From: a virus
Taxonomy: Duplodnaviria > Heunggongvirae > Uroviricota > Caudoviricetes
IMG/VR virus record: IMGVR_UViG_3300026367_000039
Location: 1 to 4,766 of that record
Direction: 5' to 3' (one strand)
DNA: 4,766 bases
Shown here: positions 1,356-4,766 of the stretch, one piece after another
Layout: every line of letters starts with the position of its first letter
How positions within the stretch are numbered: position 1 is the first letter of the stretch
The notes under the pieces: model-generated
What the model was told of the DNA's origin: nothing
What the model saw: only the letters and a program-made list of their open reading frames with translations
The model's database searches: none
Translations under genes and position numbers: made by a program

Positions 1356-2725
1356 GCGCGTTTCCTCCTGCGACGCGCCGGGCTCTTGGCCTCAGTTGGT
1401 TCCGCGACACGGTTGGCTGTCCGTCCCGTCGCCAGTTCCCAGCGCCGCACGGCGACGTCGCAGTAAGCGGGGTCCAGTTCCATCGCAAAACACCTCCGCC
1501 CAGCACGTTCGGCGGCCACCAGCTGGGTGCCAGAGCCGCAGAACGGCTCGTAGATCAGGTCGCCCGGATCGGTGAACGCCGTCAGCACTGCTTCAACCAG
1601 CGCCACCGGAAACACTGCGGGATGCGATCCGGCCGCGCCCAGCCCGCCCTTGTGACGCATGATGCGGAACACGCTGTCTGGGATGCGATGACTCTGGATC
1701 GCATTGCCGAAGCCCGTCTTGCGATGGACCGCGCCATCCGCCCCGCGCAAACCCCCACCGCCGAGGATCTCGCCCGCGTGCTTGCTCTCGACCGTCTTGT
1801 GCGGTTTGCGGGGCGCGCGGTTGAAGTGGAAAATGAACTCGTGCGACGGGGCCAGTCGGCCGTTCCAATCGCCCGGCAGGCCGGGCCCCTGATCCCAGAC
1901 ATACCAGCCAAACCGTCGCCAGCCAGATGCGCGCATCCATTCCACCCATCCTTCCCAATAGGGCTGCCATTCGCTGTCGCGATGCACGAGGCCAAGGTTG
2001 ACCAGCAGCTGGGCATCGGCGCAGACCGGTGCGGCAGCGAACACGCCCTGCACCAGCGCATCCCAATCGCCGACCTTTTCCTTGGCCGCGCCGTAGTCGC
2101 GTTGCTGGGCGTAGGGCGGCGAGGTGAACATCAGCGTCGCCGCCTCATTCTGCATCAGCTTGGCGACGGCGGCGGGATCGGTCGCATCGCCACAGCAGAG
2201 CCGGTGCTTGCCCAGCGCCCAGATGTCGCCCGGACGCGTGATAGGTTCAGCGGGCGGTTCGGGGATGGCGTCGGCCGCATCGTCGGAAATCACCGGGCGG
2301 TCGTCGGCGTCTGCCAACAGCGCGTCCAGTTCATCCTCGGGGATCCCGATCAGCCCGAGGTCGAAATCCTCTGCCAGCAGCGCCTGCAATTCCTGCAACA
2401 GCAGCGCTTCGTCCCAGCCGCCCAGCTCGGTTAACTTATTGTCAGCGATGCGATAAGCCCGGCGCTGCGCCTCGGTCAGATGGCCAAGAATGATGACGGG
2501 GGCCTCGGTCAGCCCAAGGTGTGCAGCTGCCAGGACGCGACCGTGGCCTGCGATCAACTCGCCATCAGCCGCGACCAGCACCGGCACGGTCCAACCGAAC
2601 TCGGCCATGCTGGCGGCGATCTTCGCGACCTGATTTGCATCGTGGGTCTTGGCGTTGCGGGCGTAAGGCTTCAGACGGGCAAGGGGCCAGTGCTCGATCC
2701 GGCCCGGCAGGATGGGTGCGTTCAT
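1352..2725 (-). CDS. ParB-like N-terminal domain fused to a beta-class DNA methyltransferase, SPPY variant (possibly N4-cytosine); 457 aa
   Basis: N-terminus MNAPILPGRIEHWPLARLKPYARNAK...DGELIAGHGRVLAAA carries the ParB/Srx-fold G-H-x-R motif. Motif IV is TSPPY, followed by HPAVFP and then the AdoMet motif I EPFCGSGTQ, i.e. beta-class order IV before I. Start placed at ATG 2725 (not the longest-ORF ATG at 2860) because the paralog alignment begins there and it forms an ATGA overlap with the upstream gene's stop. Confidence 0.85.
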   Translation of the reverse strand: MNAPILPGRIEHWPLARLKPYARNAKTHDANQVAKIAASMAEFGWTVPVLVAADGELIAGHGRVLAAAHLGLTEAPVIILGHLTEAQRRAYRIADNKLTELGGWDEALLLQELQALLAEDFDLGLIGIPEDELDALLADADDRPVISDDAADAIPEPPAEPITRPGDIWALGKHRLCCGDATDPAAVAKLMQNEAATLMFTSPPYAQQRDYGAAKEKVGDWDALVQGVFAAAPVCADAQLLVNLGLVHRDSEWQPYWEGWVEWMRASGWRRFGWYVWDQGPGLPGDWNGRLAPSHEFIFHFNRAPRKPHKTVESKHAGEILGGGGLRGADGAVHRKTGFGNAIQSHRIPDSVFRIMRHKGGLGAAGSHPAVFPVALVEAVLTAFTDPGDLIYEPFCGSGTQLVAAERAGRRCFAMELDPAYCDVAVRRWELATGRTANRVAEPTEAKSPARRRRKRA

Positions 2726-3981
2726 GCCGCCAGCCTCTTCGCCTTCAGGTCGGCAAAAGTCTCGCCAGTCTCGACCAGCGCGGCATTGGCGCCGGTGAAC
2801 TGCTGCCAGCGCTCGATGGCGACATCGACGTAAGCCGGGTTCAATTCGATGCCGAAGCACACGCGCCCGGTGGTTTCCGCCGCGATCAGCGTTGTGCCGG
2901 ACCCCATGAAAGGTTCAAACACCGCCTGACCGGGGCTGGAGTTGTTCAGGATCGGCCGGCGCATGCATTCGACCGGCTTTTGCGTGCCGTGCACGGTGGC
3001 AGCGTCCTGATCCTTGCCGGAGATGTGCCACAGCGTGGTCTGTTTCCGGTCCCCGGCCCAGTGGCCCTTGCCGGTCTTCTTCACCGCGTACCAGCAGGGT
3101 TCATGCTGCCAGTGATAGTCGCCCCGGCTGAGAACCAGCCGGTCCTTTGCCCAGATGATCTGCGAGCGCACGTTGAAGCCTGCCGCCACCAGGCTTTCCG
3201 CGACGGTCGCCGCGTGCAGCGCGCCATGCCAGACGTAAGCCACGTCGCCTGGGAACAGCGCCCAAGCCTCGCGCCAATCCGCGCGGTCATCGTTCAGCAC
3301 CTTGCCTATGCGCTTGGTTTTGGCGGCCCCCGCCTGGTTGCGCCAGGATGGGTCATATTCCACGCCATAGGGCGGGTCCGTCACCATCAGCAGAGGGCGA
3401 ATATCGCCCAGCAATCGCCCGACCACATCCGCAGACGTGCTGTCGCCGCAGATCAGCCGGTGCGATCCCAGCTGCCAAAGGTCGCCCACAACCGACACCG
3501 GCGTGACCGGCGGTTCGGGAATGTCATCCTCTCCGTCGGCAGCGCCACCTTCCAACTGGTCCGGGTCGCGCAGCAATGCATCCAGATCCTCGTCGGTGAT
3601 GCCCAGCAGCGACAGGTCGAAATCGTCGGCGAGCAGTCCCGCGATCTCATCGCGCAGCATCGCCTCGTCCCACTCGCCCAGCTCGGTCAATTTGTTGTCC
3701 GCGATCCGGTAGGCGCGGCGCTCTGCCTCGTCGAGATGGCTGAGCCGGATCACCGGCACATCCTTCAGCCCCAGCATGGCGGCCGCCAGCACACGGCCAT
3801 GCCCCGCGATCAGCTCGCCATCGTCGGCCACCATGCAGGGCACTGTCCAGCCGAACTTTGCCATGCTTGCTGCGATCTTGGCAACCTGGTCGGTGCCGTG
3901 GATCTTGGCGTTGCGGGCATAGGGGCGCAGCCGGTCAATCGGCCACGTCTCGATCTGGCTCGGTGCAAAGACCAGGTCCAT
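2722..3981 (-). CDS. ParB-like N-terminal domain fused to a beta-class N6-adenine DNA methyltransferase (CcrM/HinfI-like motifs); 419 aa
   Basis: N-terminus MDLVFAPSQIETWPIDRLRPYARNAK...DGELIAGHGRVLAAA (ParB-like). Motif IV VTDPPYG, then HGTQKP and FEPFMGSGTT, matching the CcrM-type DPPY / TQKP / FxGxGTT pattern in beta-class order. Strong GC3 bias; TGA stop at 2724..2722. Confidence 0.9.
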   Translation of the reverse strand: MDLVFAPSQIETWPIDRLRPYARNAKIHGTDQVAKIAASMAKFGWTVPCMVADDGELIAGHGRVLAAAMLGLKDVPVIRLSHLDEAERRAYRIADNKLTELGEWDEAMLRDEIAGLLADDFDLSLLGITDEDLDALLRDPDQLEGGAADGEDDIPEPPVTPVSVVGDLWQLGSHRLICGDSTSADVVGRLLGDIRPLLMVTDPPYGVEYDPSWRNQAGAAKTKRIGKVLNDDRADWREAWALFPGDVAYVWHGALHAATVAESLVAAGFNVRSQIIWAKDRLVLSRGDYHWQHEPCWYAVKKTGKGHWAGDRKQTTLWHISGKDQDAATVHGTQKPVECMRRPILNNSSPGQAVFEPFMGSGTTLIAAETTGRVCFGIELNPAYVDVAIERWQQFTGANAALVETGETFADLKAKRLAA

Positions 3982-4105
3982 GGGCGGTTCTCATTTGGGC
4001 AGAGCGGGCATGCCAACGGGCGCGGGCAATATGGCCAGCGACAGGATCGGGATCCGCGATGTGGGGGAAAACGAAAGCGCCCGAGAGGGGTGTCATCCGG
4101 GCGCA

Positions 4106-4133
4106 ATTCTTCGATGATTAAGAGGTACGTCAA
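4106..4133 (-). promoter_or_regulatory. candidate sigma70-like promoter for the methyltransferase operon (weak)
   Basis: On the minus strand, TTGACG (reverse complement of 4128-4133), a 16-nt spacer, then AAGAAT (reverse complement of 4106-4111), about 120 nt upstream of ATG 3981. The -10 match is only 4/6, so this is a by-eye guess. Confidence 0.15.
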
Positions 4134-4220
4134 GGGGGCTAGAAATGTCAACCCATTTTATGACGTGGAATCAACGCGTTCTGCGGGTTCGGGGTTTGCG
4201 GGGAAAAGCCGGTGTCGCGA

Positions 4221-4270
4221 GTGGCTTTCCGGGGTGGCTTTCTGGCCAGCGTGGCTACCAAAAAGTGGCT
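4221..4270. repeat. array of four direct GTGGCT(T) repeats (iteron-like or operator-like)
   Basis: GTGGCT at 4221, 4234, 4251 and 4265 (GTGGCTTTCC, GTGGCTTTCT, GTGGCTACCA, GTGGCTTGCC), spaced 13, 17 and 14 bp. About 0.01 occurrences of one oriented hexamer are expected by chance in 50 bp. Confidence 0.6.
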
Positions 4271-4274
4271 TGCC

Positions 4275-4295
4275 TGGATTCCACCGAGGAATCCA
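4275..4295. repeat. perfect 8-bp inverted repeat TGGATTCC-N5-GGAATCCA (candidate dimeric protein-binding site)
   Basis: TGGATTCC (4275-4282) and GGAATCCA (4288-4295) are exact reverse complements around the spacer ACCGA. Each arm contains a GANTC site. It lies immediately after the GTGGCT array. Confidence 0.6.
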
Positions 4296-4351
4296 CTTAG
4301 CCAGAAGGGTGAGACCCTAAGCATTTGATAATGAGTCAAAATTCAGGGTCG

Positions 4352-4397
4352 AGCCACTGGCTTGGCTTCGAAGTGGATTCCCCGGTGAAAAAGCCAC
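4352..4397. repeat. two opposite-orientation copies of the GTGGCT motif flanking TGGCTT repeats and a third TGGATTCC
   Basis: AGCCAC (reverse complement of GTGGCT) at 4352-4357 and 4392-4397; TGGCTT at 4358-4363 and 4363-4368; TGGATTCC again at 4374-4381. Confidence 0.5.
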
Positions 4398-4421
4398 GCG
4401 CTAGCGAAATGCCGCGCTAAG

Positions 4422-4468
4422 CCCCCCCGTATACGGATAGGGCCGGGGAGGAACCATGCTGGGGGGGG
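4422..4468. other. C7 homopolymer, 10-bp perfect palindrome CCGTATACGG, and G8 homopolymer
   Basis: C-tract 4422-4428, palindrome 4427-4436, G-tract 4461-4468. The C and G tracts are complementary and could pair, or could act as slipped-strand tracts. Confidence 0.5.
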
Positions 4469-4486
4469 TCGTGTCGGTTCCGGCCC
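4440..4486. other. GC-rich imperfect hairpin (about 11 bp of stem, 20-nt loop)
   Basis: GGGCCG (4440-4445) pairs with CGGCCC (4481-4486) and GAACC (4451-4455) pairs with GGTTC (4476-4480). No downstream T-tract, so it is not a typical intrinsic terminator. Confidence 0.35.
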
Positions 4487-4535
4487 ATTGCTGCCTTTCG
4501 CCCACCCTCGGTTATGCTGCACTGCGGTCCGCCAT

Positions 4536-4613
4536 TGCGGACTTTCGCTGCAACTGCGAAATATGATGTATAGCGAATTCACAGAGTGCGGACAAAGTTA
4601 GCATTCGCTGCAA
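4536..4613. repeat. two-copy direct repeat module TGCGGAC ... TTCGCTGCAA
   Basis: TGCGGAC at 4536-4542 and 4587-4593; TTCGCTGCAA at 4544-4553 and 4604-4613. The first copy is embedded in the small inverted repeat TTCGC-N7-GCGAA (4544-4560). Confidence 0.5.
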
Positions 4614-4766
4614 GTGCCCCATTGGCTGCTTCGTTGGCGCGAGGGTTCAGTTCTCTGTTACTGTCAAAATCCAGTCTGTAATTTGATCAAGCGAGTGTTT
4701 GGCAAATGCTTTTCGTCCCATCCCCAAATAGATATATTGCAGGTACCAAGGCCATTGAGATGTGAG

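Follow-up and report, generated by a model that had tools for sequence, protein, structure and literature searches.

The DNA analysed here, a stretch of 4,766 nt referred to below as the window, is part of a prophage-like element. Two small genes lie on its + strand, one assigned to a PHROG of unknown function and the other encoding a DUF3489 protein, whereas the − strand carries a DUF7220 gene and two tandem genes for fusions of a ParB-N domain with an N6/N4 DNA methyltransferase. The fusion gene at 2722..3981 (Pfam N6_N4_Mtase; PHROG ParB-like and methyltransferase) would be the first gene after the cos site that we propose below, and it is overlapped by its paralogue at 1352-2728. From 3982 to about 4468 (~490 nt) there is no credible gene, and the inverted repeat that is the subject of this work, at 4275..4295, lies inside this non-coding region. 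A second perfect short inverted repeat, GCGCAGCGCGTAGCTGCGC at 1165-1187, is located between the convergent DUF3489 and DUF7220 genes and is probably a bidirectional terminator.

With the first methyltransferase as the query, we found 160 related loci in genome and viral collections, almost all of them from Rhodobacterales, and two annotated plasmid copies were retrieved through the non-coding DNA. The non-coding region is recognizably conserved in 126 loci. In the annotated relative, an integrase, regulators, a VRR-NUC-type nuclease, an HTH_36 replication-protein-like gene, a methylase and variable cargo (DUF262, a type ISP restriction enzyme and an exonuclease) are followed by the non-coding region, two ParB-methyltransferases, small genes on the opposite strand (including DUF3489), the small and large terminase genes TerS and TerL, and lambda-like head genes. 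TerS was detected in 134 and TerL in 129 of 162 family loci, about 4.7 kb downstream and hence outside the 4.8-kb window. The annotated relative has a lambda gpA-type TerL (GpA_ATPase, 2.6e-102; GpA_nuclease, 6.5e-91), and TerS matches phrog_57; a search of PDB sequences with TerS gave no meaningful match.

Several genomes harbor two or three members of the prophage family, among them JAHRYM010000001.1 (L009, L014 and L027), NZ_JBEPPX010000011.1 (L034 and L040), Rhodobacter sp. SW2 (L006 and L031) and IMGVR_UViG_3300002756_000060 (L110 and L133). Some of the co-resident members are 40-120 kb apart on one contig, and in one case the distance is 15 kb, which suggests tandem or clustered lysogeny.

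The inverted repeat and the octamer array

The earlier note described the element at 4275-4295 as a perfect inverted repeat with an additional copy of its arm, and this description is accurate. The arm TGGATTCC occupies 4275-4282, its reverse complement GGAATCCA follows at 4288-4295 after a spacer of 5 nt, and a third exact copy of TGGATTCC is present at 4374-4381. Taken alone, however, an 8-bp inverted repeat is at the level of chance: 1.26 pairs of perfect 8-bp arms separated by 3-10 nt are expected per window of equal composition, and 64% of the simulated windows contained at least one. Similarly, TGGATTCC with at most one mismatch occurs 6 times in the whole window against 4.4 expected, which is again the chance level. 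What does exceed chance is the local cluster of a related motif together with the conservation of the inverted pair. The motif TGGMTTNC is found 7 times in the window compared to 1.3 expected, a count reached in none of 200 shuffles, and 6 matches fall within 4160-4400, whereas the maximum per 240 nt across 1000 simulations was 3.

These matches belong to an array of about ten TGG[A/C]TTCC octamers (in the broader form, TGG[A/C]TT[C/T/G]C) that extends over 4166-4381, with nearly all copies in direct and one in inverted orientation. The direct copies on the + strand include S1 (4222-4229) and S2 (4235-4242), both TGGCTTTC, S3 (4252-4259, TGGCTACC), S4 (4266-4273, TGGCTTGC) and S5, the left arm of the reported repeat; the right arm, S6, is the single inverted copy. 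The reported palindrome is thus due to the position of the inverted S6 beside the direct S5. The two cos-proximal sites, S8 (4363-4370, TGGCTTCG) and S9 (4374-4381, the third copy of the earlier note), are also on the + strand and are 11 bp apart. At the opposite end of the array, the outlying motif-like site S0 (4166..4173, + strand) reads TGGAATCA in the window and mostly TGGATTCA in the homologues, with the conserved columns GA.TCAA.

Among the homologues, the array has the consensus TGGCTTCC or TGGATTCC with a spacing of 9-16 bp. The fourth base of the motif varies between A and C, both among genomes and among sites, whereas TTCC is invariant, and the best conserved part of the array, GGTGGMTTCC-N3-TGGMTTCCCCGGTGA, corresponds to the S8/S9 region. 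In 50 kb of the annotated relative on plasmid pRA03, where the array has spacings of 9, 14, 15 and 14, 7 of the 14 exact motif matches are confined to a single 160-nt stretch; the uniqueness of this cluster points to a single cis-acting site and not to an operator scattered along the prophage.

The only AT-rich patch of the array, where the AT content peaks at 63%, coincides with a candidate IHF consensus, WATCAANNNNTTR at 4318..4330 (− strand, TATCAAATGCTTA), that is situated between the inverted S6 and the S8/S9 pair. An exact IHF consensus at a fixed offset, 45 nt to the left of S8, is present in 37 of the 89 anchored homologues compared to none of 104 shuffled sequences; in the remaining homologues there is only an AT-rich patch, without the strict consensus.

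Conservation and insertions in related prophages

The earlier note regarded a lack of conservation in homologous loci as evidence against its repeat. When the homologous loci were compared, 100 of 104 distinct regions had an inverted TGGMTT...AAKCCA pair in this position, so that the repeat is clearly kept. Its usual form in the homologues is TGGMTTC-N7-GAATCCA; overall, the pair spans either 20-23 bp (94 of the 100 homologues that have it) or 29-30 bp. Furthermore, more than 100 related prophages of the Rhodobacterales share the octamer array, the patch with the IHF consensus or its AT-rich counterpart, and the adjacent conserved block 4399-4468.

The conserved non-coding region consists of three parts: block 1, the octamer array and block 2. 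Block 1 (4067..4132, − strand) lies upstream of the first ParB-methyltransferase gene and outside the repeat array. In this block, sigma-70-like hexamers, TTGACG-16-AAGAAT at about 4132-4105, abut a GC-rich hairpin at 4076-4103 that is followed by a T-run; the hairpin is terminator-like (−19.8 kcal/mol, z = −2.0). A paralogous block 1 module is also found across cos in some genomes (in the flanks of L002, L113, L010, L102 and L020), and the module could be a terminator or an antitermination target for late transcription. Block 2 (4399-4468) is nearly invariant and is composed of (T)CGCTAGCG(A), GCGCT..G, C7, G[C/T]ATAC, GGCCGGGGAGGAACC and a G-run. The first of these elements, at 4399..4406 between the predicted cosN and the first repeat, is a near-invariant palindrome, CGCTAGCG in the window and mostly TCGCTAGCGA in the homologues. 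Past the G-run, at about 4466-4468, the genomes abruptly cease to resemble each other, as seen in more than 100 loci.

In 11 homologues, insertions of 0.7-2.2 kb, consisting of genes or IS elements, separate block 1 from the array. Because the insertions fall between these two parts, the array always stays attached to block 2; S0, which adjoins the promoter-proximal conserved block, stays with block 1 where insertions split the region. The linkage of the array to the cos block favors a cos function over promoter control.

These observations bear on the interpretation advanced in the earlier note, namely, that the palindrome is the footprint of a dimeric helix-turn-helix protein. In the form of an operator, this would be the site of a dimeric regulator that controls the ParB-methyltransferase/late operon to the left. 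The conservation of the inverted pair in 100 of 104 homologues agrees with such a role, as does the location of the palindrome upstream both of the operon and of the sigma-70-like promoter match, and the two classes of spacer differ by about one helical turn, which is compatible with a protein bound to one face of the DNA. However, about 150 bp separate the palindrome from the promoter-like hexamers downstream of it, and eight or more further copies of the half-site in direct orientation surround it; the insertions part the array from the promoter block while leaving it with the cos block; and no second cluster of the motif is present at other promoters in the 50 kb of the related prophage. 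The repeat accordingly has the appearance of neither an isolated nor a promoter-linked operator, and we consider the operator hypothesis unlikely. What stands of the footprint claim is that the sequence is genuine and conserved and most likely binds a protein; what does not is the stand-alone palindrome, given that it is embedded in an array of about ten copies of the motif.

A second insertion hotspot maps to the equivalent of ~4180-4215 (L007, L029, L027, L062, L082, L022, L074/L063, L134, L030, L149 and L142). The cargo at this hotspot includes a gene for a ~208-aa protein on the opposite strand in several loci, SDR-like and deaminase-like genes, a umuD/umuC-like pair and IS elements. Genome-specific cargo on the − strand is also found just past the G-run (4469-4766 in the window and the flanks of ~100 loci), where it comprises type I, ISP and III restriction-modification genes, DUF262, a UvrD-like helicase and an exonuclease; the shared early genes (VRR-NUC, HTH_36 and the C5 methylase) come beyond it. 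This region looks like a defence/moron hotspot beside cos. In the window, the corresponding AT-richer stretch contains the apparent 3' end of a − strand gene that ends near 4650. Direct repeats are present in this flank at 4483-4620, with CCATTGC(T/G)G(C/A)CTTTCGC at 4485 and 4532 and TTCGCTGCAA(C/G)TGC at 4544 and 4604; similar GGCC.ATTGCTGCCTTTCG strings occur in the flank of L101 and, in a looser form, in those of L061 and L097. The flank also shows weak blastn matches to Sulfitobacter and Thalassobaculum plasmids.

We also considered an attachment site (att) and dropped this reading: a tRNA scan found none, the homology ends at the junction with variable cargo, and the integrase is ~16 kb away in the annotated relative.

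Structure or protein-binding site

An inverted repeat can also be read as a functional hairpin, a cruciform or a structured RNA, with single-strand promoters and regulatory RNAs as examples. The region 4140-4420 folds better than shuffled sequences on both strands (z = −4.3 and −3.9), and there is a second, long-range inverted repeat between S6 and S9 that spans the IHF site (4279-4298 and 4371-4390; 20 nt, 90% complementary). The favorable energy on both strands, however, follows automatically from the presence of one inverted copy of a repeated motif, S6, that pairs with S9. The comparison of homologues also speaks against selection for pairing: the variable A/C base of one arm and its partner in the other are complementary in 58 cases and non-complementary in 42, that is, they vary independently, and in an alignment of 84 sequences the 8-bp helix shows zero compensatory changes, with the variable pair formed in 37 of the 84. 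The long S6/S9 helix is paired at 62.7%, and covariation is limited to 2 of its 20 pairs, both in flanking columns that follow the two main clades. A scan of the whole window against Rfam at E <= 1 returned nothing. Because the arms vary independently, their conservation is that of copies of the motif, as is typical of a site bound by a protein, and we deem a structural role extremely improbable.

The loop between the arms nevertheless can be found in either orientation in some homologues, a feature that is seen at hairpin-forming sites and would fit a structural reading. In one subgroup (L032, L093, L121 and L059), the central inverted pair, the equivalent of 4272-4298 in the window, has a 17-nt spacer (GGTGGATTCTTGACAAAAATAGTAAAATCCACC), and L047, L016 and L039 carry the same 33-mer as an exact reverse complement (with one mismatch) between unchanged flanks. 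The change amounts to a small inversion of the loop that the arms enclose.

The origin hypothesis

In the earlier note, the GTGGAT contained in the arms was taken for the core of a DnaA-box-like sequence and thus for a hint of an origin-like region. GTGGAT does occur on the appropriate strands, and it shares 6 bases with the complement of the DnaA box, TTATCCACA. In addition, the succession of repeats, an AT-rich patch with an IHF consensus and more repeats resembles the layout of an iteron origin, in which the iterons would flank an IHF-bent unwinding element, possibly with DnaA-box-like cores. The resemblance does not extend to the sequence of the box, however: no TTATCCACA-like box is present in the array even when 2 mismatches are allowed. 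In the whole window, there are 3 such matches compared to 5.3 expected, none of them in the repeats, and the sole DnaA-box-like match nearby is TTAGCCAGA at 4297-4305. Moreover, the A of GTGGAT alternates freely with C in the homologues, and the invariant TTCC lies outside the consensus and fits no DnaA box.

A separate, lambda-O-like candidate origin is found elsewhere in the family. Within the HTH_36 replication-protein-like gene of the pRA03 prophage (L163, 10525-10700), at least three palindromic 15-mers, CTCCGGAWWCCGGAG, are spaced by 57-71 nt and resemble the lambda ori iterons within gene O; in other family members, these iterons are represented at the protein level by repeated PCPETG motifs. 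Considering this candidate and the fact that the array directly adjoins sequence homologous to physical cos ends (see below), it is very improbable that the array is a replication origin, and the DnaA-box idea of the earlier note is left without support.

Homology to the genome ends of RcC phages

The blastn search of the non-coding region against 50,697 phage records produced no match, and the connection to cultured phages was reached via TerL, followed by direct alignment. The closest cultured relatives by TerL are the Rhodobacter capsulatus phages of the RcC cluster, which have defined genome ends with 11-base 5' overhangs (PMC8601537). That paper gives the type of end only, without cos subsites, and the literature yielded no description of cos subsites for these phages. 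The records of RcDormio, RcBaka and RcKemmy share the same start base, and in the rotated record of RcOceanus the junction is uninterrupted.

We joined the ends of RcDormio and aligned them locally with the − strand of the window. The joined ends match 4399-4468 in a 115-nt local alignment with a score of 55, compared to 24.9 +/- 3.1 for shuffled sequences (maximum 34), and the tool alignment A2 agrees. In RcDormio, the aligned sequence is ...GGTTCTTCCGGACCCCTACGCTATGCG up to the physical end of the genome and GGGGGCGGAAGCGCG..TCCCTAGCG..TTTTTTTTGGGTTTCCACTT beyond it; the partner in the window is ...GGTTCCTCCCCGGCCCTATCCGTATACG followed by GGGGGGCTTAGCGCG..TCGCTAGCG..TTTTTCACCGGGGAATCCACTT. 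CTAGCG is found in the RcC phages at the place that matches the palindrome 4399..4406.

The homology to the RcDormio end junction places the predicted cosN at 4417..4438, where the − strand reads ATCCGTATAC GGGGGGG CTTAG. Base 1 of RcDormio aligns with 4427, so that an 11-nt cohesive end would occupy 4417-4427 or, if the GenBank records place the overhang at the right end, 4428-4438. Owing to the G-run and the short (~115 nt), G/C-rich homology to the RcC phages, the nick positions, which we infer by homology, carry a margin of a few bases, or of 11 under the other overhang convention. The adjoining segment 4439..4468 (− strand), with the invariant CCGGGGAGGAACC and a terminal G-run, aligns with the last ~45 nt of RcDormio and RcOceanus (GGTTCTTCCGGACCCCTACGCTATGCG) and would be the right-end segment of the virion DNA, a candidate cosQ-like or termination element.

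The repeats, too, have a counterpart at the ends of the RcC phages. RcDormio has three GTTTCCACTT repeats (counterpart of the octamers, GTTTCCAC) starting 35 nt past the overhang, and these occupy the position of the first repeat in the window, S9, where the window has GGAATCCACTT 36 nt from the aligned position and predicted overhang. Furthermore, the two ends of the linear RcDormio genome coincide exactly with the syntenic position. The right end is preceded by nuclease, HTH_36, methylase and HTH genes; from the left end, 163 nt lead to a ParB-like gene, three genes on the opposite strand, TerS and TerL. The genes of opposite orientation that separate the ParB gene from TerS show no homology between the window and RcDormio and correspond in position only.

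The termini of the IMG/VR contigs do not pile up at one base but scatter over the equivalents of 4435, 4443, 4456, 4476 and other positions in the window, and are better explained by assembly breaks at the junction of conserved and variable sequence. One contig (L107/L204, IMGVR_UViG_3300035034_002657) ends with ...CCCCCCCGTATACG, 7 nt past the C-run and inside the predicted cosN; given that other nearby ends scatter, this is probably a coincidence. The RcA-cluster phage RcRhea, tried as a further comparator, is organized differently, its TerS being 98 nt from the end, and proved uninformative.

A probable cos site

Taken together, the repeat family and its conservation, the homology between the neighboring block and phage ends defined by experiment, and the synteny suggest, with a probability that we put at roughly 0.68, that 3982-4468 contains the cos packaging site of a temperate, lambda-like phage that has integrated into a Rhodobacterales genome, with the array serving as a cosB-like region for the binding of TerS. 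The reported inverted repeat would then be two of the about ten motif copies that mark a likely cos site, that is, an ordinary phage element rather than an origin or an operator. The family loci appear to encode a terminase of the lambda type, a gpA-type TerL along with the TerS that accompanies the site, and the array seems to be placed as a cosB would be, starting 36 nt from the predicted overhang on the side of the terminase genes, as in RcDormio.

The most likely binder of the repeat is TerS, with its N-terminal helix-turn-helix. The sequence of this domain is highly conserved within the prophage family (MSEREYSAHSGLSRGAIQKARK...) and differs in RcDormio (ISLREYARRRGVSHTAVGKAIK...), in parallel with the repeat itself, which is GGAAKCCAC in the prophage family and GGTTTCCAC in the RcC phages.

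These elements can be arranged in a tentative model. On the − strand, in the direction of late transcription, the right-end segment (4468-4439) would be followed by cosN (~4438-4417) and the cosB-like region, the latter made up of two GGAAKCCA repeats (S9 and S8), the AT-rich IHF site, the inverted S6, and five to six direct repeats (S5-S1 and S0). By analogy with lambda, the helix-turn-helix N-terminus of TerS would bind the octamers, and IHF would bend the DNA such that S6 meets S8/S9, which have the opposite orientation. The bound complex might then anchor the gpA-type large terminase, which would introduce staggered nicks ~36 bp away, and packaging would proceed towards the ParB-methyltransferase, TerS, TerL and head genes.

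The octamers might instead be bound by the adjacent ParB-N-domain proteins, as loading or recognition sites. In both the prophage family and the RcC phages, the first gene after cos encodes a ParB-N domain (that of the window fusion is 43% identical to that of RcDormio gene 1), and ParB proteins are known to have centromere-like arrays that include an IHF site, P1 parS being an example. However, only the ParB-N and methylase domains were detected in the fusions, with no recognizable ParB helix-turn-helix or centromere-binding domain, and the repeats differ between the prophage family and the RcC phages just as the helix-turn-helix of TerS does. Moreover, it is established for lambda-like phages that a TerS with an N-terminal helix-turn-helix recognizes the cos-proximal repeats (PMC4669245). 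We find ParB-N proteins distinctly unlikely to take the place of TerS as the readers of the array.

Because the array is much longer than the known cosB regions, part of it could nevertheless serve another protein or another purpose in addition to the TerS-dependent function that we favor. A rather remote version of this idea is that the long array, beyond anchoring the terminase, is a loading platform for the two ParB-N/methyltransferase fusions. ParB-like proteins of phages very commonly adjoin terminase genes. If such a platform exists, the onset of genome packaging would be linked to methylation, by which the phage protects itself from restriction, or cleavage at cos would be aided by the ParB-like domain; either would be a new role for the ParB-like proteins of phages.

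The probable cos site itself reveals no new kind of biological mechanism. Its value is that it would locate the likely packaging site of a very widespread, so far undescribed Rhodobacterales prophage family, with hundreds of loci in genome and viral collections and often several per genome. It also would put the variable cargo into place, with restriction-modification, DUF262 and helicase-like genes immediately past the cos block and morons in the interval that separates cos from the first late gene. Knowledge of the site could help in drawing maps of the prophage and virion genomes and in predicting which host or cargo DNA is transducible. In addition, the helix-turn-helix of TerS and the octamer code (GGAAKCCAC here and GGTTTCCAC in the RcC phages) could provide a simple system for the study of packaging specificity.

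Comparison with known cos sites

In lambda, where cos is made up of cosQ, cosN and cosB, cosB has the order R3, IHF site I1, oppositely oriented R2, and R1, and the IHF-induced bend lets a TerS dimer contact R3 and R2 (PMC4669245). There is no sequence similarity between the lambda site and that of the window, and the dimensions differ as well: lambda has three 16-bp R sites over 120 bp, whereas the window contains 9-10 octamers (8-10 bp) over ~220 bp. Unlike in lambda, the TerS gene of the prophage family is not adjacent to cos but is found ~4.7 kb downstream, past the two ParB-methyltransferases and the opposite-strand block. The architecture, in contrast, is much alike. In both cases, a gpA-type large terminase goes with a GC-rich nick region (the predicted cosN in the window) that is followed by repeated sites of the small-terminase type; the candidate IHF consensus of the window, which part of the homologues have in exact form, would correspond to I1 in lying between the cos-proximal site and an oppositely oriented site, with further direct sites beyond; S8/S9 of the window occupy the position of R3; and the predicted direction of packaging is towards the terminase and head genes.

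The RcC phages differ from the window in that they have only three direct GTTTCCACTT repeats in place of the array, in the absence of an inverted copy or an obvious IHF patch from the 160 nt before gene 1, and in a ParB-like protein that lacks the methyltransferase domain. Their terminases are related to those of the prophage family, TerL of the pRA03 relative being 62% identical to its closest cultured counterparts and TerS 31% identical to that of RcDormio. At the ends themselves, homology can be recognized over ~115 nt (TAT.CG GGGGG..AGCGCG...CTAGCG), the distance from the end to the first repeat, ...TCCACTT, is equal, and the order of the flanking genes is the same.
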